Source of the DNA: Candidatus Aquivivens invisus
Lineage (GTDB): Bacteria; Omnitrophota; Gorgyraeia; Aquiviventales; Aquiviventaceae
DNA length: 64,000 nucleotides
Reading direction: 5' to 3'
Assembly: GCA_001804415.1 (NCBI GenBank)
Contig: MHGA01000017.1
Coordinates: forward strand, 18,390-82,389
Position numbers and translations under genes: made by a program. A model generated the notes under the pieces. The model ran no database searches. It worked only from the letters and a program-made list of their open reading frames with translations, and was not told where the DNA came from. Below are positions 1,710 to 50,810 of the stretch, piece by piece (position 1 is the stretch's first letter; every line of letters begins with the position of its first letter).

Positions 1710-2135
1710 TCAGAGGACGAACCGCTCGGAAGGTTCAAGCGTAGGCGGGAGAGCCGGCTTGTTCACCGTGATCTCCAACGGATCGCTCAGTAGAGATTGT
1801 CCTCGGCGCCTCGCCTCGAATGGGCCGAGGGTGAACTGGCCAGGCTCAAGCGCCGTCAGCGCATACACAAGGCTGATCGACCGCTTCACCTGGCCCGCCT
1901 CCATCGCCAGGTGCGTCGAGCGGCTCTGCGCGACGACGCGAAAAGCCTTGGGGAATTCCACGGGCTCCAGCTCGACCTGCTGGACATTGCCTTCCACGGT
2001 GATCGTCAACGCCAGCTGCTCTCCGACATCCACGGTCGTGCGATCAACCTGCACGGAGAGCTGCACGTCGGGAGGACCCGCCTGATCGGGGGCCGCCTCC
2101 GCGATCGCCGAACCGAGGAGCGTTGCGAGACTCAC
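1710..2135 (-). CDS. Secreted hypothetical protein (possibly a BatD-like N-terminal fragment)
   Basis: 141-aa ORF, co-directional and immediately downstream of htpX. It has a hydrophobic N-terminal segment but no diagnostic motif. Confidence 0.35.
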   Translation of the reverse strand: MSLATLLGSAIAEAAPDQAGPPDVQLSVQVDRTTVDVGEQLALTITVEGNVQQVELEPVEFPKAFRVVAQSRSTHLAMEAGQVKRSISLVYALTALEPGQFTLGPFEARRRGQSLLSDPLEITVNKPALPPTLEPSERFVL

Positions 2136-2176
2136 GAGGATCGCGCGGAAAATGGGAGGCCTCGAGTGAGGTGCTC

Positions 2177-3037
2177 TTACAGCCGCATCCGCCGCAACCG
2201 ACGCACGCGCTCCTCAACCGGCGGATGCGTGGAGAACAGGCGCGCGATCGCCCCGGCCGAGAGGGGATTGACAATGAACAGGTGCGCCGTGGCGGGATTG
2301 GCGTTCGGCAGCGGGTACTCGCGCGAGGCTGTGTGCAATTTCTCCAGGGCGTCCGCCAGCCCGTAGGGGCTGCCCGCCAAATGCGCGCCCGTGTCGTCGG
2401 CGCCGTACTCGCGCGTCCGCGAAATCGCCAATTGAATCAACATCGCGGCCAGCGGGGCGAGGATGGCAATCAGCACCAGCACGACGAGCTGCAACGCCCC
2501 GGCTCCTCGGTTCTCGCTGTTGCGGCTCCGGCCGCCGCCGAACCACAACGACCACTGCGCCATGCGCGCGAGGTACATGATGGCCCCGGCGATGGCCGCG
2601 GCCAACGTCATGACCAGCGTGTCGCGGTTCTTCACGTGCGAGAGCTCATGCGCCAGGACCCCCTTCAGCTCCTCCTCGCCCATGAGCTCCAGCAACCCGG
2701 AGGTCACGGCCACCGCCGCGTGGCTGGGGCTGCGCCCCGTGGCAAAGGCGTTGGGGGTCCGCGTGGAAATCCAGTACAGCTTCGGCATGCGCATCTGGCT
2801 TCGCGAGGCGATTTCCCGCACGACCCGGTAGACCTGCGGAGCCTCAGACTCGCCGAGCGGCTTGGCCCGGTACATGGCCAGGACGATCTTATCGCTGAAC
2901 CAGTAGGTGATGAAGTTGAGGACCAGGGCGAACGCCAATGCGATCGTCGCCCCCTGCGTTCCACCTATCAGGTGGCCGAGAAATACCAGCAGGACGGTCA
3001 GCAACGCCAACAAGAATCCGGTCTTCAGCACGTTCAT
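2177..3037 (-). CDS. htpX: Zinc metalloprotease HtpX (peptidase family M48)
   Basis: HELSHV zinc motif, an N-terminal TM pair MNVLKTGFLLALLTVLLVFLGHL and GAIMYLARMA-type helices. The start at MNVLK is preferred over the ORF-track start at 3097. Confidence 0.8.
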   Translation of the reverse strand: MNVLKTGFLLALLTVLLVFLGHLIGGTQGATIALAFALVLNFITYWFSDKIVLAMYRAKPLGESEAPQVYRVVREIASRSQMRMPKLYWISTRTPNAFATGRSPSHAAVAVTSGLLELMGEEELKGVLAHELSHVKNRDTLVMTLAAAIAGAIMYLARMAQWSLWFGGGRSRNSENRGAGALQLVVLVLIAILAPLAAMLIQLAISRTREYGADDTGAHLAGSPYGLADALEKLHTASREYPLPNANPATAHLFIVNPLSAGAIARLFSTHPPVEERVRRLRRMRL

Positions 3038-3119
3038 GGTGACTTCCTCCTCTATTCTTGTGCTTGGTATTATCCCCCCTCGAAGGAGGGCTGTCAAAGC
3101 AATCCGGCGAGGTGGGCGA

Positions 3120-3878
3120 TCAGCAATGCAGGGCCTGTAGGTCGCGCGCGAGGGTGAGGCGGCCGGCGTACGAGCGGCGGATGCGGCGGCGGGCGGTGGC
3201 GAGATGGACGATCGGATAGAAGTGCGTCAGGACCAGGCGGCGGGCCTGCGCCTCGGCGGCGATCCGCCCGCAGGCCGTCGGCGTCAGGTGGCCGGCGACT
3301 TTGCGCTCATCGGGCATGGAGCATTCGAGGATCAACACATCCGCCCGGCGACCCAACTGAACGATGTCGTCGCAGACGTCGGTGTCGCCTGAATAGGCGA
3401 TCGCGCGCCCGGCGGATTCGAGGCGATAGCCCAGCGCGCGTCCCTCCGCATGGTTCATCCGCTTCGTCCGCACCGTGCCGCCAGGAAGTGCGAGCGTCGT
3501 TTCGCCGAGTTCCTTGAGGGTCAGGCGGTACGTCTGTGGCTCGATCCAGCGATGGAAGGCGGTGTTGAGCTGCCGGTACAGTTGCTTCAGCCCGCGAGGA
3601 CCATAGACCGTAAATGGTCGCGTGCGGGCAGGGTACGGGATGCGCATCGCAAAGAGGATCGAGACGAGATCGAGACAGTGGTCCGGATGGAAATGCGTGA
3701 GGAAGAGGCGGTCGAGGTCGAGGTAGCTGACCCCGATGCGCATGAGCTGTTTGAGCGTGCCGGGGCCCGCGTCGAGCACCAGGTGTTCCCTGCCCGCCTT
3801 CACGTAGACGCCAGCGTACCCGCGCGGCGTGCGCGGATCCGGAATCCCCGTGCCGGTGCCGAGGAGCACGATCTTCAT
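3120..3878 (-). CDS. MBL-fold metallo-hydrolase (RNase Z/ElaC-like)
   Basis: LLGTGTGIP N-terminus, THFHPDH (HxHxDH) metal-binding motif and a downstream D/H ligand in ECSMPDE. Confidence 0.6.
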   Translation of the reverse strand: MKIVLLGTGTGIPDPRTPRGYAGVYVKAGREHLVLDAGPGTLKQLMRIGVSYLDLDRLFLTHFHPDHCLDLVSILFAMRIPYPARTRPFTVYGPRGLKQLYRQLNTAFHRWIEPQTYRLTLKELGETTLALPGGTVRTKRMNHAEGRALGYRLESAGRAIAYSGDTDVCDDIVQLGRRADVLILECSMPDERKVAGHLTPTACGRIAAEAQARRLVLTHFYPIVHLATARRRIRRSYAGRLTLARDLQALHC

Positions 3879-3880
3879 GG

Positions 3881-3962
3881 GACACAAGACTCAAGACACA
3901 AGACCCAAGACTATGACTTGAGTCTTGAGTCTCGGGTCTTGAGTCCAACAACTGGGTCTTCC
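3881..3962. repeat. Imperfect inverted repeat built from CAAGACN heptamers (intergenic hairpin between the exonuclease-WYL gene and the MBL gene)
   Basis: gacacaagactcaagacacaagacccaagact-atg-acttgagtcttgagtctcgggtcttgagtc. Confidence 0.6.
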
Positions 3963-3967
3963 GATGG

Positions 3968-4789
3968 TCATTCGGCGACGGCCGTCGGCACGAAGTCCGC
4001 GGGAATCGTGTACCGGTTCCACGTGGGCTTGATGTCGAGGATGCGGTCAATCCGGAACTGGCGGACGTCCTGGCGGAGGTGGCAGTACCCCTCGAAATAC
4101 GGTTCGTTCACGGCGTACACATCGACCCGACGGACGCGTTGCGCCGATTCGCCGGCCTGCACGCTGGCGGAAAGGTACTCGATCTCCACTTGGAGCCGTT
4201 TCTGGAAGGCCTCCGCCAACACCTTGGCGATCATTGCGAGGTCGCGTTTTCGCTCAGGCCAGAAGACCGGAATGTTCAATTTCTCCGCTCCGTAGCGGCT
4301 GGTGGCGAAGAGCGTGCCGTGCTGTTTGCCATAATCAAACAATTCTTTGGTGAGGCGCACGTCGTCGAGACAGTATTGCTTGATGAGGTCGAACTTCCCT
4401 TCTTTAAACCAGGCCAGCGCCTGGAGCCCGCTGCCGCTCTTGCCCTTTCCCAGGGTGGCCTGACACAAACTCTCCAGGCTCACGCGATGACCCAGTTGCT
4501 TGACGGCATCGTCAATGATGTCCAAGACCGGAATCGTCGAAATAGGAAAGGGCAGATAGGGCGAGAGGACCGGCAGGTCGAAGCGTTTGATGTTGAAGCC
4601 GATCACCAGCTCCGCCTCCTGCAGGAGGGGGACGAGCTGACGCAGCTCGGCTTCCAGATACGTCTCGTAGTGATCCGCACCGTAGCGGTAGATCCCGACG
4701 ACCGAGACGCCGAGGAGCTCATGCCGACGCCCCTCGACTTCGCTGAACTCCCGCTGCGTTTCCAGATCGAGCACAATCCGTTCACCCAT
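3968..4789 (-). CDS. DnaQ-like DEDDy 3'-5' exonuclease fused to a C-terminal WYL domain
   Basis: Exo I is IVLDLETQ, Exo II is VIGFNIKRFDLPVL and Exo III is YCLDD. The C-terminal segment EPYFEGYCHLRQDVRQFRIDRILDI matches the WYL-domain core (WYLxGYCxLRxxxRxFRLDRI). Confidence 0.6.
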   Translation of the reverse strand: MGERIVLDLETQREFSEVEGRRHELLGVSVVGIYRYGADHYETYLEAELRQLVPLLQEAELVIGFNIKRFDLPVLSPYLPFPISTIPVLDIIDDAVKQLGHRVSLESLCQATLGKGKSGSGLQALAWFKEGKFDLIKQYCLDDVRLTKELFDYGKQHGTLFATSRYGAEKLNIPVFWPERKRDLAMIAKVLAEAFQKRLQVEIEYLSASVQAGESAQRVRRVDVYAVNEPYFEGYCHLRQDVRQFRIDRILDIKPTWNRYTIPADFVPTAVAE

Positions 4790-4811
4790 GGACGGAGGTC
4801 ATCCTGCGCGT

Positions 4812-4907
4812 GGTGACAAGCGACAAGGGACAAGCGACAAGTTCGATGTCACCGCTCACTCATCCGTGTTGACTTGTCGCCTGTCGCTTGTAACTTGTCC
4901 CTGTCAT
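4812..4907. repeat. Heptamer-repeat hairpin (GTGACAAGCGACAAGGGACAAGCGACAAG arm, ~30 nt spacer, complementary TTGTCGC/TTGTAAC/TTGTCCC arm)
   Basis: Direct reading. Lies between the stop of the cpATP-grasp gene and the start of the exonuclease-WYL gene. Confidence 0.65.
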
Positions 4908-6298
4908 GTGAGCATGAGGGCGCTGAGGAGGCCGCCGCCGCGGGAGACATTGACGACGGGGTCTTCCGAGAAGCGGCCGATCAGGCCGACCCCGGTCGAA
5001 TTGACAAAGAAGCCGGAGACCACGCGCCGCTGGACATCACAGACGCTCCCGCCATTGAGCCGGGGGAACCGTTCCGTCGCGATGCGGGCGCGCTCCTGCA
5101 CGACGTACCGGCTGCGCCCCCCGAGGGCTTTGTTGAGCGTGCGCTCCCACACGGATTGCAAGACGCAATCGCCCACGACCACCCCCTGCCCGCCGTAGAG
5201 GGTGTTGGGCTTGAGGACCAGACGATTCTTGTGCCGGCGGATATAGGACGCCAGCGCCACGCGCGCGCCTGACGGGTCGGATGCCTGGGTCTGGCGCACC
5301 AGCCTGGTCCACGGCAGATGGCGGCGGAAGAACCACCGCTGCTGCGTGGTAAAGTACCGGGCGTGGGTGGGATCGGTGAAGATCTCCCAGCAGGACTTCT
5401 GGTCGAATTCCCACAGCAGGCCGGAGATCAACCGGCCCTCCCGAATCGCCTGCCGCAGGGCCGCAAGCCGCCTCCCGTGGCGCTCCATGTCGAGAAATTC
5501 GTTGAGCTCGCAGTCACGATAGAGGAGATCCACCGGTTGGCCGTTCGCCACCAGGCCGCGCCGGCCCACGCGCAGCGCCCGGGGGTCGGCGACGACGGCC
5601 TTCAGGCCCCGCCCGGCGAAATACCTCGCCAGGCTTTCGAACTCGTCGGTGCCGGTCGTGAAATCGGTGTTCTCGATCAACGCGACACCTCGCAGCCGGC
5701 GTCCCAACCGGCGGGAGACGCTGACCAGTTCGTCGAGCAACAGGTCGCGCGGGTCAGGCATCGGCACCACCCGACGGCCGGGAAACGCCCGCTCGAAGGC
5801 ATCGCCCAGCACATCCAATACGATTGAGGCGGCCGCGGGGGCATAATGGATGCCGCCGACCCCGACGGTATTCGGCTCGAGCATCTGAAAGGTCTCGCGC
5901 CACCTCGCGTGGGAAAACGTCGCGTTGGAATCAAGCCGCCCGAGCAGCGCCAGAGGCCGGCTGTGGCGCTGGCCGGCCAGGAGAATCCATGAGGCCTGCG
6001 CCGCCGTCAAGGGCAGGATGCGCCGAATGGCGGGATCGCGGGCGTACAGGGCCGGCAGGCGGGCCAGCGCCTCGACCATCAGGCGCGCGGCGCCATGAAA
6101 GAACTTGACCTGGGCCGGGCTGAGGATCCAGGGCACGAGGGCGAGCTCAATCGTCTGCGGCTTGTTGTGGCCCGCGAGAAACCGAAGCCCCCGCACCGCA
6201 CTCAGTGCCTGAACGGCGTGCAAACGCCTCAGCAGCTCCTGCCGGCCAAGCCGCTTGACCGCTCGATGCAACGGCTCACACGAGAGATAATCAAGCAT
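4904..6298 (-). CDS. Circularly permuted ATP-grasp type 2 family protein (DUF404/DUF407-like amidoligase)
   Basis: LVLKPNTLYGGQGVVVG plus RYVVQERARIA and downstream glycine-rich segments resemble cpATP-grasp-2 proteins. The start is chosen at MLDYL (6296-6298). The ORF-track extension to 6571 crosses a palindromic element and is probably untranslated. Confidence 0.5.
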   Translation of the reverse strand: MLDYLSCEPLHRAVKRLGRQELLRRLHAVQALSAVRGLRFLAGHNKPQTIELALVPWILSPAQVKFFHGAARLMVEALARLPALYARDPAIRRILPLTAAQASWILLAGQRHSRPLALLGRLDSNATFSHARWRETFQMLEPNTVGVGGIHYAPAAASIVLDVLGDAFERAFPGRRVVPMPDPRDLLLDELVSVSRRLGRRLRGVALIENTDFTTGTDEFESLARYFAGRGLKAVVADPRALRVGRRGLVANGQPVDLLYRDCELNEFLDMERHGRRLAALRQAIREGRLISGLLWEFDQKSCWEIFTDPTHARYFTTQQRWFFRRHLPWTRLVRQTQASDPSGARVALASYIRRHKNRLVLKPNTLYGGQGVVVGDCVLQSVWERTLNKALGGRSRYVVQERARIATERFPRLNGGSVCDVQRRVVSGFFVNSTGVGLIGRFSEDPVVNVSRGGGLLSALMLT

Positions 6299-48079: not shown

Positions 48080-48159
48080 GGATGCGTGTTCTTGGATTGA
48101 TGGCCCAATGCTTGCGCGGCCGTTTCATCGACGTGATGAGGCGCCACGATTGTACCGTA

Positions 48160-48207
48160 GGTGCTGGGGGGGTGTCAACGAACTGTGCTCGTGGGTAGTG
48201 CATCAGT
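48160..48207. repeat. Palindrome-containing element, copy 1, with core TGCTCGTGGGTA, at the left edge of the lower-GC island
   Basis: gtcaacgaactgTGCTCGTGGGTAgtgcatcagtttgac has arms gtcaa..aactg / cagtttgac. Confidence 0.45.
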
Positions 48208-49051
48208 TTGACCTGAAGATTTTTTGAGCTACGAGGTCAAGCACATCCTCAAGCTCCCATAACTTATTCGTTACCCCTGCCGCCATCGCTGGCGTAACTC
48301 GTAGGCTCTTGTGAATCCTCACGAAGTTATAGTACATGAAGTGGAGGGCTACTGCCGCCTCTAGGTTCTGCACCTTCTTGGAGAAGGCGTTGGTCAGGCG
48401 GGTAAAACGCCTCATGCTCATCCGCATGGTCAGGTTTTGCCGCTCCGCGAAGCTCGTGGAGACGTGCCAGGGGTCCGGGTTTCCCTGAATCCTGGTTCCC
48501 TGGACCGCCAGGCATACCGCCGGGCTGTACCGGGTTTGCTCAGGCTTGGGATCGTTGCCGTAGATTTTAACGAGCATCGAATAGTCCACCTCAGAGCCAA
48601 ACGCCCCCTCTACCGCCTCGATATAGACCCGGAAGCCATCTGTCGTGATCTGCGGACGGTACTTGAGGCGGCTGGCGAGATCGCCCATGAACGCTTGGGC
48701 GGCGGTCAGGTTGCGCGGAGCCACAAGCCACGAGGGGACGAGCTTGGTATCCGCGCAGATCGCCGTCCAGGTCCACACGTCCCCATAGCCCCACTTGCCC
48801 AGCTTGTCCTTCGGGACATTCTTCTCTTTGGCGTAGCAGAAGGACCAGATTTCATCACATTGAAGGCGCTTACAGGAGAGGTTGCGGAGCGTTTCGTCCT
48901 GGTAGGCGGCACACGCTGTACCCGCGTCTAGAAGCAACTTGACGACCGTATTGAATGACACGTCACCCATCCGGGCGGTGGCGCGCATGGAGTTGCCTTC
49001 GACGAGGGCTTGGAGAATGGTGGTTTGTCGTTCCATATCTAGCCTGTTCAT
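48203..49051 (-). CDS. IS1-family transposase (HTH + DDE)
   Basis: CDEIWSFCYAKEKN..WTWTAICADTKLV..ITTDGFRVY..SFAERQNLTMRMSMRRFTRLTNAFSKK..HFMYYNFVRIHKSL follows the IS1 InsB motif order DE..W.W.A.D / TDG..Y / IER.N...R..RL.R.T..FSK / YNF.R.H. Confidence 0.7.
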   Translation of the reverse strand: MNRLDMERQTTILQALVEGNSMRATARMGDVSFNTVVKLLLDAGTACAAYQDETLRNLSCKRLQCDEIWSFCYAKEKNVPKDKLGKWGYGDVWTWTAICADTKLVPSWLVAPRNLTAAQAFMGDLASRLKYRPQITTDGFRVYIEAVEGAFGSEVDYSMLVKIYGNDPKPEQTRYSPAVCLAVQGTRIQGNPDPWHVSTSFAERQNLTMRMSMRRFTRLTNAFSKKVQNLEAAVALHFMYYNFVRIHKSLRVTPAMAAGVTNKLWELEDVLDLVAQKIFRSN

Positions 49052-49107
49052 ACACCTAGTATACTTGAGCGCTCAAGCATAAGTCAACAAAAAAGATTCA
49101 CCCCACA
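48203..49107. mobile_element. IS1-family insertion sequence (ends approximate)
   Basis: Single-ORF IS1 transposase plus imperfect terminal inverted repeats: TGAAGATTTTTTGAGCT at ~48209-48225 and its partner, the reverse complement of 49087-49104 (TGAATCTTTTTTGTTGACT). Local GC is ~56%. Confidence 0.55.
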
Positions 49108-49177
49108 TTATTCTCTCAACTTGCTTGCTGACTCACGGTCTCTTAACGCCTTACTCTTATCCTTACAGGTGGCGTCG

Positions 49178-50221
49178 TCACGAAGCCCCTTCGTGGCTTT
49201 TCCCGTTCGGCTTGCTCGATCCAGCCGCTTCAGGCTTTCCTGCAGCATCCGGCTGAATACCGCCGCCGTCAGCTTGTTCTCTGACATTGCTGTCCTCCTT
49301 TTCCAGTTCCGCATCCTCTTTGACAGTAGCCCCCAGGTCAACCACCAGGGGTTCCGCTGACGCTCTGACGATTCGTCCCTGAATTTCATCCACCAATGCC
49401 TGTTCAGCTGGGTCAAGGGCAGAGACCGACTTGAATAGTTCGGCGGCTTCCGCTGCATCAATCACGAAACCGTGTGAGGGATAATCATTAATCAACCGCT
49501 CAAGTGCTCCGGTCTTTAAATTCCCTTTCTCCAAACGGTCGCCGTACGCTTTAGCAATCGTCATCTGACGCTCAATCTCCCCAACGCGATAAGGATCAAT
49601 CTGGGCAGCCACAGGAGTGAAGATGCCGCTCACCAACTGGCTGGAAATATCTGACGCCGTCTTGGTCGAGATCGCCCGACCGCTCTTAGTCACCAATTCC
49701 AGCATATAGGTTTCAAAGCTCTTGAAGGCGTGGGTCGTAACTGTCGTCAATGCCTGCAGCGTGTCCAGCCCAGATTCCATGTTGAAAATCTCATCGGGCT
49801 TGTTGATCTGAATGTCGAGCGGACCCAATTCGCCGTAGTCGCCAAACGCGAGGTGGTTGGAGCCGACGGCAAGCAACGTACCAGCGCTCTTGCACGGTCC
49901 CGCCACTAACAAGCGGATTTTTTCATACGAGCGCTGCAGCCAACGGGCAAGACGATATGCCCCATGCGCGTCTCCACCATGCGTTGTCAGGAAGAGAGAC
50001 ACGTTGGTCCGCTTCGCCTTGCCTTTGGCAGCGATTTTGCGACACAACTGGTCAACTCCGCTGTCCTCAATGGGACCACTGTAGACGTACAGGTCGGACT
50101 GAAACTCTTCAAGCAGCGCGTTGACTTGCTTGGAACAGCGGTATTTTGGCGATCTCTTCTTGGCGGGAGTTGTCATCGAGAATGCTACCTCAGCGGGTTT
50201 TGGCTTTCTTCCACCTGGCAT
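49178..50221 (-). CDS. ClpP-fold serine peptidase of the SDH/S49-like family
   Basis: LFLTTHGGDAHGAYRLARWL and VAGPCKSAGTLLAVGSNHLAFGDYGELGPLD follow the Ser-nucleophile-elbow pattern of S49/SDH ClpP-fold peptidases. The low-complexity C-terminus is uncertain. Confidence 0.5.
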   Translation of the reverse strand: MPGGRKPKPAEVAFSMTTPAKKRSPKYRCSKQVNALLEEFQSDLYVYSGPIEDSGVDQLCRKIAAKGKAKRTNVSLFLTTHGGDAHGAYRLARWLQRSYEKIRLLVAGPCKSAGTLLAVGSNHLAFGDYGELGPLDIQINKPDEIFNMESGLDTLQALTTVTTHAFKSFETYMLELVTKSGRAISTKTASDISSQLVSGIFTPVAAQIDPYRVGEIERQMTIAKAYGDRLEKGNLKTGALERLINDYPSHGFVIDAAEAAELFKSVSALDPAEQALVDEIQGRIVRASAEPLVVDLGATVKEDAELEKEDSNVREQADGGGIQPDAAGKPEAAGSSKPNGKSHEGAS

Positions 50222-50417
50222 ACGCGGCGCTTTGCGCGATCCTACTTCGTGCTTCGGCTGACAGCTTTGCCGCTCTTGCAGGTCCGCCCTTCATCCCACC
50301 CTTTTTACCTAGATAAACGGCGGCGGCATCCTTACCGTCGGTAGAAACCTCAGCGATCCACTTCGCTAACTGGTTGAGGTCCTTTGGTAGACCACGTTTG
50401 CTTGAGCGCTTTGGCAT
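50190..50417 (-). CDS. Small basic protein, possibly DNA-binding
   Basis: MPKRSSKRGLPKDLNQLAKWIAEV..KKGGMKGGPARAAKLSAEARSRIAQSAAYARWKKAKTR. The GG..ARA..LS.E.RS.IA..AA.ARW tail is a recurrent basic helix motif whose family I could not name. The stop overlaps the protease start. Confidence 0.35.
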   Translation of the reverse strand: MPKRSSKRGLPKDLNQLAKWIAEVSTDGKDAAAVYLGKKGGMKGGPARAAKLSAEARSRIAQSAAYARWKKAKTR

Positions 50418-50625
50418 ACGGATAGTATGCCATAACATACGGAAAGGTCAACTAGCGATTTGAAAGAATATGTCCAGAGTGATTCAGATCAATACGGATT
50501 TGGGGTCTATCAGAGAGTAGCGCCGACAATAACAAGAGAAGAAGGACCGTTAAGATCGCGTTGACGATGAATGTCCGATACGAGCACTTCGGCCATCGCA
50601 TGGGAAGCTATTATAACACGCTCCG

Positions 50626-50672
50626 TCAAACTGACGCACTACCTGCTCGTGGGTACTGGTCAAGTTTGACAG
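50626..50672. repeat. Palindrome-containing element, copy 2, with core TGCTCGTGGGTA, at the right edge of the lower-GC island
   Basis: gtcaaactgacgcactaccTGCTCGTGGGTActggtcaagtttgac has arms gtcaaactgac / gtcaagtttgac. Confidence 0.45.
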
Positions 50673-50778
50673 GGCCTGTCGCTGCGCCATCCCGCCGTCC
50701 GTCCTCGGCGACGGGCGGCTGTACAGCCGCGCTCGTCACCTGCGGGCGGGCGGCGGGAGCCCTGGCTCCGCGCCCCCC

Positions 50779-50810
50779 GTCAAACTTGACCACCACCTGC
50801 TCGTGTGCTC
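50779..50810. repeat. Third, degenerate copy of the same element
   Basis: gtcaaacttgaccaccaccTGCTCGTGtgctcg. Confidence 0.35.

Follow-up and report, generated by a model that had tools for sequence, protein, structure and literature searches.

In a 64,000-nucleotide stretch (the window) of contig MHGA01000017.1 from Candidatus Aquivivens invisus, an Omnitrophota metagenome-assembled genome (MAG) from Rifle groundwater, we analyzed the island that lies between hisG and a gene for a PpiD-like protein. The 2,450 bp at positions 48194-50643 very probably constitute a single autonomous insertion sequence (IS) of the IS1 family, a transporter IS (tIS) that carries a protease gene as cargo. Its boundaries, target duplication, empty site, presence/absence polymorphism and gene order, as well as the conservation of this arrangement across relatives, are directly observed. 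An original prediction, made from the DNA letters of the window, had described the island as a small integrated cassette with an IS1-family element inside or beside it. The ends of the element and its immediate neighborhood, which includes a short element resembling a miniature inverted-repeat transposable element (MITE), are the following (no strand assigned):

48186-48193: first copy of the target-site duplication (TSD), TGCTCGTG, of which the empty site of locus L008 has a single copy at the corresponding junction
48194-48212: right inverted repeat (IRR), the transposase-distal end, GGTAGTGCATCAGTTTGAC; one of an inverted-repeat pair, with the same ends in relatives
50625-50643: left inverted repeat (IRL), the small-gene end, reverse complement GGTAGTGCGTCAGTTTGAC; the other member of the pair
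50644-50651: second copy of the TSD, TGCTCGTG, equal to the left flank of the MITE-like element; recognized as a direct repeat and from the empty site
50652-50797: 146-bp MITE-like element with the ends GGTACTGGTCAAGTTTGAC and, as reverse complement, GGTGGTGGTCAAGTTTGAC; inverted repeats, non-coding
50798-50805: third copy of TGCTCGTG, the right flank of the MITE-like element; direct repeat

The terminal inverted repeats of 19 bp, GGTAGTGCRTCAGTTTGAC, are 18/19 complementary (95%; repeat analysis), and the IRR contains the stop codon of the transposase gene (TCA AAC TGA). Such a 19-nt end, with up to three mismatches allowed, occurs twice in the window against an expectation of 0.02. The order at the locus is therefore TSD-IS-TSD-MITE-TSD. 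The GC content of the 2,450-bp element is 54%, while that of the flanks is 64-68%, in agreement with the dip noted by the original prediction; along the window, GC falls to 0.48-0.59 at about 48.05-50.75 kb versus 0.64-0.68 on both sides.

Empty sites were searched for on contigs that encode exactly the hisG protein of the window, several of which carry the island. On L008, hisG is located directly beside the PpiD-like gene and the junction reads ...GTCAACGAACTG TGCTCGTG GGTACTGGTCAAGTTTGAC...; the empty allele was found in three samples (L008, L012, and L015) as ...GAACTG TGCTCGTG GGTACTGG.... L008 is identical to the window minus exactly 48194-50651, that is, the IS and one copy of the duplication, and it retains the 146-bp element with TGCTCGTG on both sides. 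The same empty allele is present in L012 and L015, which come from other samples. Since presence and absence cover exactly 48194-50651, the 2,450-bp unit is what moved, and since the empty site has one copy of the duplication and the MITE-like element, the moved unit duplicated 8 bp and arrived after that element, which is the older of the two because it already stands in the empty-site contigs. The direct succession of hisG and the PpiD-like gene, which had been proposed as a check, thus exists in nature, and the island is indeed an insertion gained by horizontal transfer whose boundary can be defined. One sample (JGI 3300009296) holds both the empty allele (L012) and the element (L019). L019 (Ga0103681_1033319, 2528-2796) has an identical IS copy whose transposase-side end adjoins a different flank, with tRNA-His, while its other end has the flank of the window. 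This suggests that the element occupies a second site or that the assembly has fused two copies; the tRNA-His flank was found neither in the window nor in any other fetched locus. Natural empty sites within the same groundwater Omnitrophota population indicate that the element was recently active.

The neighboring 146-bp element has 23-nt arms that are 87% complementary, is flanked on either side by an exact TGCTCGTG, and folds as a single long hairpin (free energy -53.6 kcal/mol, z = -6.0). It occupies the divergent promoter region of hisG and the PpiD-like gene, and its end occurs in exact form twice in the window, compared to 0.09 expected. An apparent difference inside this element in the MAG GCA_003508135 turned out to be a run of N from scaffolding and was discarded as a variant.

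Three open reading frames (ORFs) of the island were found in the ORF list at the coordinates given by the original prediction. With the starts adopted here, the genes of the element are:

48203-49051, minus strand: single-ORF IS1-family DDE transposase of 282 aa, with a helix-turn-helix (HTH) at residues 12-44 and the predicted catalytic residues D66, D138, and E203
49178-50176, minus strand: ClpP-fold serine peptidase of 332 aa, the cargo; ATG at 50176 with a GAGG ribosome-binding site
50190-50417, minus strand: small basic protein of 75 aa that belongs to the IS core (MPKRSSK... at the N-terminus; C-terminal GGMKGGPARAAKLSAE-RS-IA--AA-ARW), recognized by ORF, motif, and homologues

The assignment of the transposase to the IS1 family could be upheld, though the homology is distant. 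The protein matches the NCBIfam IS1 model NF033558 with E 1.9e-13, and PGAP labels it and its relatives as 'IS1 family transposase'. By BLAST, residues 12-44 match the InsA HTH of E. coli IS1A (E 1e-4) and residues 199-239 match the region around the catalytic glutamate of InsB from the same element (E 7e-5). In an alignment that includes InsB, the motifs DExW, (T/S)DG, and ERxNL..R....FSK are invariant, and so are D66, D138, and E203, the predicted catalytic triad. The lineage comprises 1,841 relatives (clusters at 50% identity, E ≤ 1e-30), several of which share the C-terminal ...SN of the window protein. Among the 150 relatives listed, dozens measure 400-670 aa, and their transposase domain occupies the C-terminal part (such as P0196, P0208, P0209, P0213, and P0240). 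The N-terminal extensions show little conservation, are hydrophobic in part, and result from a frame that runs across the promoter region; they may reflect either an artefact of gene calling or a genuine fusion.

The architecture of the window element is seen in 10 other complete elements. More than 20 relatives, located at unrelated sites, have the same ends and differing 8-bp duplications. Relatives are found in Acidobacteriota, Nitrospira, Chloroflexota, and alphaproteobacterial plasmids, and their common gene order between the two ends is small basic protein, variable cargo, and single-ORF transposase. Examples are:

Thermoanaerobaculia element: 3,387 bp, perfect 19-bp ends GGTAGTGGCTCAATTTGAC, duplication CCATCCGA
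Holophagales element: 3,459 bp, duplication TGTCTCAG
Nitrospira element: 4,078 bp, duplication CCCTTGCG
Mesorhizobium loti plasmid element: 3,370 bp, duplication CGCTGGTG
Acidiphilium multivorum plasmid element: 2,634 bp, duplication AAGCCGAG

In the Thermoanaerobaculia element, two extra genes precede those for the small protein, the peptidase, and the transposase, in this order, and its peptidase is the second-best homologue of the window peptidase (48% identity). When metagenomes were scanned for exact matches to the end sequence, at least 119 stretches were obtained, of which 80 were fetched; these contain at least 15 elements or MITEs of 32-3,664 bp with perfect 8-bp duplications, most of them MITE-sized. 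Many elements of 32-930 bp on metagenome contigs carry the IS's own ends together with perfect 8-bp duplications. Minimal elements made up of the two inverted ends only were also seen (L157, 609-640, 32 bp; L108, 849-901, 53 bp), the 32-bp one between two identical 8-bp copies of GCCGCCTC; such forms could have arisen by extreme deletion or as by-products of transposition. In a Bryobacterales MAG (CBDDCY010000013.1; L023, 1602-6881), two IS copies with different cargo stand in tandem 2 bp apart. The left copy is inserted into the end of the right copy, and its duplication GTGGTAGT takes in the terminal 6 nt of the right copy's repeat along with 2 nt from the flank. This suggests that the IS lineage prefers the ends of related elements as targets, in line with the position of the window element.

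The cargo differs between elements. The peptidase family of the window is found in the window element itself (WIN) and in L020, L021, L023B, and L071, and L220 carries a canonical PF01972 SDH protease on the opposite strand. Three elements (L023A, L068, and L219, the last at 1796-5165) contain an ImmA/IrrE-like fusion of HTH_3 and Peptidase_M78 along with a partner of about 160 aa. L171 (3314-5629) encodes an N6/N4 DNA methylase with a weak Mrr-like nuclease domain and an ORF that is acetyltransferase-like by eye, and the genes in L123 and L145 are of unknown type. The small gene, on the other hand, is present in 11/11 complete elements, near the left end and in the same orientation as the transposase gene. 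At genomic peptidase loci, of which 80 among 375 found were examined, a transposase is present at only about 10, and about 70 lie outside any IS. The small-protein motif occurs at 7 of these 80 loci (six IS-linked and one likely remnant); by BLAST neighbor clustering the protein was detected at nine, eight of them IS-linked plus L091. Because the small gene is constant, the cargo variable, and the peptidase mostly found outside any IS, we conclude that the small protein is part of the IS and the peptidase its passenger.

In the window, the small gene is the first of an operon with the peptidase gene, from which it is separated by a 13-nt gap, with one promoter for both. The frame is open over 50190-50438, and the real start is the ATG at 50417, as the N-terminus MPKRSSK is conserved in homologues. 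The protein is basic and predicted to be helical. No usable match for its family was obtained in Pfam, NCBIfam, PHROGs, or PADLOC, and a profile search of the PDB gave only designed repeat proteins at E ≥ 0.5; the Mesorhizobium copy carries the PGAP label 'histone H1'. Its position and constancy suggest that the small protein acts as the element's own putative DNA-binding accessory protein or regulator, positionally like InsA of IS1.

The longest ORF of the peptidase gene extends to 50221 and encodes 347 aa, but the 332-aa start is used by other annotations and fits the alignment of homologues. There are more than 2,231 homologues, about half of which carry a precomputed PF01972 match, and the window protein belongs to phrog_21683 ('unknown function', E 6.5e-84). 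Invariant in the alignment (347-aa numbering) are G82-G83, G108-x-C110-K-S112-A-G-T (GPCKSAGT in the window), and GELGPLD (130-136), and K141, H250, and D255 are invariant or nearly so. Ser112 is the predicted nucleophile; in a PDB profile search it aligns with the nucleophile Ser97 of Pyrococcus 1510-N, and K141 or H250 are candidates for the general base. The AlphaFold model (predicted local distance difference test, pLDDT, 86; predicted template modeling score, pTM, 0.76) has its best Foldseek matches in 1510-N, ClpP, and SppA (probability 1.0 to 6m4b, 3q7h, and 4kwb). The ClpP fold named by the original prediction is thereby retained. The SDH assignment is not, as the protein scores 22.2 bits against PF01972 (cut-off 31.3) and 32.7 bits against NF047768 (cut-off 250). 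Because it stays below the cut-offs of the SDH models, we treat the peptidase as a putative cytoplasmic ClpP-fold serine protease of a separate, uncharacterized family. In a literature search on the SDH proteinase and on ClpP-like defence proteases, no paper was found that deals with what this family does.

Neighbor clustering at the 80 genomic loci revealed no partner gene conserved across the peptidase family, only lineage-specific synteny. The neighbor-joining tree of the peptidases is star-like with the IS-linked copies interspersed among the others, and the number of captures by the IS cannot be counted from such a tree. On viral contigs, 94 relatives were found, and 80 of these prophage loci were fetched (L222-L301, IMG/VR). 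At 39 of them, the peptidase gene follows immediately, on the same strand, after a gene for a CI/LexA-type repressor of about 235 aa (HTH_3+Peptidase_S24), with cro-like and replication genes on the opposite strand; a stricter motif test left 23 prophage loci from at least 10 lineages at 70% identity. At 12 more loci the peptidase gene stands beside an XRE-type regulator and an ORF of about 160 aa with an HExxH motif. In the Klebsiella phage ST13-OXA48phi12.4 (MK422450; L302, 4282-5984), the peptidase is annotated as 'SppA protein' and its neighbors as XRE regulator and ImmA/IrrE metallo-endopeptidase.

The slot downstream of a prophage repressor is known to harbor accessory genes expressed during lysogeny, such as rexA and rexB in the lambda cI-rexA-rexB arrangement. 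We do not think that the peptidase is part of the transposition machinery. In the cargo slot it would be an accessory protease, co-transcribed with the small gene and expressed while the element is quiescent. Since it sits downstream of a CI-type repressor in prophages, it is quite possible, if somewhat short of probable, that the peptidase protects the host or the element in this quiescent state by a function of the exclusion or abortive-infection type.

Other explanations of the island as a whole can be weighed against the transporter IS. A small integrative cassette could have entered by site-specific recombination at att-like palindromes of about 45 bp, with an unrelated IS1 of about 0.9 kb inside or beside it. 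A repeated motif does bracket the island (48160-48207 and 50626-50672) and recurs 130 bp further on (50779-50810), all three copies having been seen again, and the GC content is unlike that of the flanks. However, the supposed 'core' of the palindrome, TGCTCGTGGGTA, combines the 8-bp target duplication with GGTA, the first 4 nt of the inverted repeat; the left 'arm', GTCAACGAACTG (GTCAAC), is the -35 region of the hisG promoter-like site and lies outside any repeat; and the right-hand 'palindrome' is composed of two related transposon ends, back to back across the 8-bp duplication. What looked like att sites or recombination sites are terminal inverted repeats, the target duplication, and the ends of the neighboring MITE-like element, and inverted 19-bp ends with an exact 8-bp duplication are the signature of DDE transposition. 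Neither in nor beside the island is there an integrase or recombinase, and Pfam and NCBIfam searches found no such domain in any island ORF. The empty site retains one 8-bp copy, a conserved promoter rather than a second transposon end is located upstream of the transposase gene, and the more than 20 relatives combine the same ends with differing duplications at unrelated sites. A cassette is thus highly improbable, and instead of lying inside or beside it, the IS is the entire island. We give practically no credence to the island as a prophage remnant with the peptidase as a decayed ClpP-like head-maturation protease, to which the phrog_21683 match, a weak match to the head-maturation protease model NF045542 (E 0.0076), and the 94 relatives on viral contigs might point. 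The island and its surroundings contain no other phage gene, transposon ends and a target duplication delimit the insertion, and its flanks are housekeeping genes (hisG, ppiD-like, nrdR, and glyA) that are contiguous in the empty site; in prophages, moreover, the peptidase copies lie in the immunity region beside the repressor and not among head genes.

Two further alternatives concern the small protein and the peptidase, which had been proposed to form a toxin-antitoxin (TA) or defence-like pair and which an IS might have picked up as a self-contained TA or anti-phage unit. The genes are adjacent, co-oriented, and almost certainly co-transcribed, as in the operon that was predicted, the pair recurs in several elements, and other cargo of the lineage is defence-like (the methylase with the Mrr-like domain and the XRE-M78 fusion). 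As a functional unit, however, the pair does not hold: the small protein is found in every complete element, including the peptidase-free L023A, L123, L145, and L219; its motif accompanies few members of the peptidase family, namely the 7/80 genomic loci mentioned above and 1/80 prophage loci, that one with an IS1-like transposase. The family has no conserved partner gene, and none of the three proteins (transposase, peptidase, and small protein) matched a known or candidate defence or TA protein in PADLOC-DB v2 at E ≤ 1. We therefore regard such a pair as quite unlikely. It also seems unlikely, on the evidence at hand, that the small protein is a repressor and the protease its cognate anti-repressor, comparable to ImmR/ImmA of ICEBs1 or to RecA-stimulated cleavage of CI, which together would form a stress-sensing switch of transposition. 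Such a switch would agree with two unrelated protease folds in the cargo slot, ClpP-fold SDH-like (WIN, L020, L021, L023B, L071, and L220) and HTH+M78 (L023A, L068, and L219), with the repressor genes that adjoin prophage peptidases, and with a palindrome, CTTGAGCGCTCAAG, between the -35 and -10 boxes of the window transposase promoter. Yet L123, L145, and L171 are protease-free, the palindrome is not conserved, its half-site GCTCAAG alone recurring, and most family members have neither an IS nor a repressor as neighbor, the Nostocales copies being chromosomal.

Several points count against the transporter IS of the IS1 family and against a protective role of its cargo. The transposase reaches 50.8 bits with NF033558 (cut-off 100 bits) and 16.9 bits with PF03400 (DDE_Tnp_IS1; E 0.008, cut-off 24.1 bits), and it has neither the zinc finger of InsA, as the HTH extends from residue 12 with no CxxC pairs before it, nor the classical IS1 frameshift. 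On account of these sub-cut-off scores and missing features, we place it in a distant single-ORF branch. Only one copy of the IS is present in the 64-kb window, and no further copies of the 146-bp element, as expected of a multi-copy MITE, were found in the window or the fetched loci. The second junction on L019 could be an assembly join instead of a real second copy, and precise excision, rather than the ancestral state, could in principle account for the 'empty' alleles, the unit being mobile either way. The AlphaFold model of the small protein is weak (pLDDT 68, pTM 0.34). As to the peptidase, its suggested role is read from gene neighborhood, and in Nostocales (L029-L062 and L083; Rivularia, Calothrix, and Mastigocoleus) it is encoded by a syntenic chromosomal gene without an IS, next to a gene for about 508 aa that was read by eye as lysS (lysyl-tRNA synthetase). 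The family is therefore not exclusively mobile, and this synteny speaks against a purely 'mobile defence' role.

For the transporter IS, a course of insertion can be proposed whose chemistry is borrowed from the IS1 family. The DDE transposase would recognize both 19-bp ends (GGTAGTG...TTTGAC), and the entire 2,450-bp unit would have been inserted via staggered cuts 8 bp apart, by which TGCTCGTG was duplicated. The landing site is the divergent intergenic region of hisG and the PpiD-like gene, flush against the end of the older MITE-like element. The IS re-used as its target the 8 bp that flank this element, which has the same type of end sequence. Further features in and beside the element are:

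48149-48178, minus strand: hisG promoter-like site, TTGACA-N18-TACAAT, with 11/12 consensus positions, outside the element
49058-49087, minus strand: transposase promoter, TTGACT-N18-TATACT, ending 6 nt before the ATG and conserved in related elements
50424-50451, minus strand: promoter-like site of the small-protein/peptidase operon, TTGACC-N16-CATACT (TG-extended), ending 6 nt before the ATG
50452-50601, minus strand: hydrophobic ORF of 49 aa (MRWPKCSYRTFIVNAILTVLLLLLLSALL...), just inside the left end of the IS, with an extended -10-like sequence, TGTTATAAT, 8 nt upstream of its ATG

The IS lies 7 bp upstream of the putative -35 hexamer of hisG (15 bp counted from the left copy of the duplication), and because it is so near, its insertion may change the regulation of hisG. 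Across elements, the consensus of the transposase promoter is aTGCTTGAC-N17/18-(T/C)ATAAT. A candidate inner IS end at about 49.08-49.10 kb was rejected because the matching GTCAAC is the -35 box of this promoter, which is conserved in all relatives; the transposase gene has accordingly no terminal repeats of its own around 48203-49051, the upstream look-alike (GTCAAC at 49084) being this same box. The palindrome within the transposase promoter occurs in the window element only, and when an operator shared by both promoters was searched for, only GCTCAAG, which abuts the -10 box, was conserved among elements. The 49-aa ORF was not found in other related elements and could encode a small membrane peptide or be a chance ORF.

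These results remove a false lead, since the apparent cassette with recombination sites is a textbook footprint of transposition. Islands of this kind in soil and groundwater metagenomes are easily mistaken for defence or integrative islands, which makes the lineage useful for annotation. It can be sketched as a widespread IS1 branch: in the elements examined, the small gene is constant and the cargo slot exchangeable, MITE derivatives are numerous, and insertions tend to fall at the ends of related elements. A literature search on passenger genes of ISMhu11/IS1 yielded no paper on this element. The peptidase family is a testable candidate for a protective function expressed in lysogeny. As a bolder and rather doubtful proposal, phrog_21683, with its more than 2,000 members, might be a new stand-alone effector of the quiescent state (exclusion, abortive infection, or action on repressor-type regulators) that is kept in the 'rex slot' of prophages and has repeatedly been captured by the IS1 lineage behind a small regulator; the lineage itself would then be an undescribed two-gene IS1 branch (with the small KGG...ARW protein) specialized in accessory modules.

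Compared with known systems, the 146-bp neighbor resembles MITEs in that it is short, non-coding, and provided with IS-like inverted ends and a flanking 8-bp direct repeat, but an indel and several substitutions distinguish its ends from the IS ends. The peptidase shares its fold with 1510-N of PH1510 (the N-domain of NfeD), ClpP, and SppA (MEROPS S49), its nucleophile motif aligns with Ser97 of 1510-N, and it weakly matches the SDH family (PF01972 and NF047768). In contrast to them, it has about 130 extra residues, which form a C-terminal helical region followed by a disordered charged tail, and it lacks a membrane anchor or signal sequence; its own invariant residues C110, K111, K141, H250, and D255 define a separate family. 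Like rexAB of lambda, the peptidase genes at 39 of the 80 prophage loci lie directly downstream of a CI-like repressor gene and opposite replication genes. However, there is no sequence relation to RexAB, and in the window the gene upstream of the peptidase encodes the small protein of the IS and not a repressor of a known type.

IS1-type ends follow the consensus GGnnnTG (ISfinder), and target duplications of IS1 range from 8 to 9 bp. With IS1 (E. coli IS1A, insA/insB), the window element shares ends of the form GGTnnTG/GGnnnTG (GGTAGTG at both ends in the window, GGTGATG in IS1A), a target duplication of 8 bp, an InsA-type HTH followed by an InsB-type DDE domain, a small gene at the left end, and a transposase gene that ends inside the right repeat. 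It differs in that its transposase is encoded by one uninterrupted ORF, without the programmed -1 frameshift (insA/insB') and without the N-terminal zinc finger, in that the small protein at the left end has no sequence kinship to InsA, and in that elements of the lineage measure 2.4-4.1 kb as against 768 bp, owing to their passengers. ISfinder holds single-ORF and 'ISMhu11' subgroups of IS1 with sizes up to 4.6 kb. The tIS concept reportedly goes back to work on IS1595 and IS1 by Siguier et al. in 2009, and ISs with passenger genes are mentioned under this name in passages of two papers (PMC7986276 and PMC9330008). Like a tIS, the window element has its passengers inside the terminal repeats and mobilizes them with the transposase as one unit, as seen from the target duplication and the empty site, whereas in this lineage the cargo slot is fixed between the conserved small gene and the transposase gene, with contents that are exchangeable.

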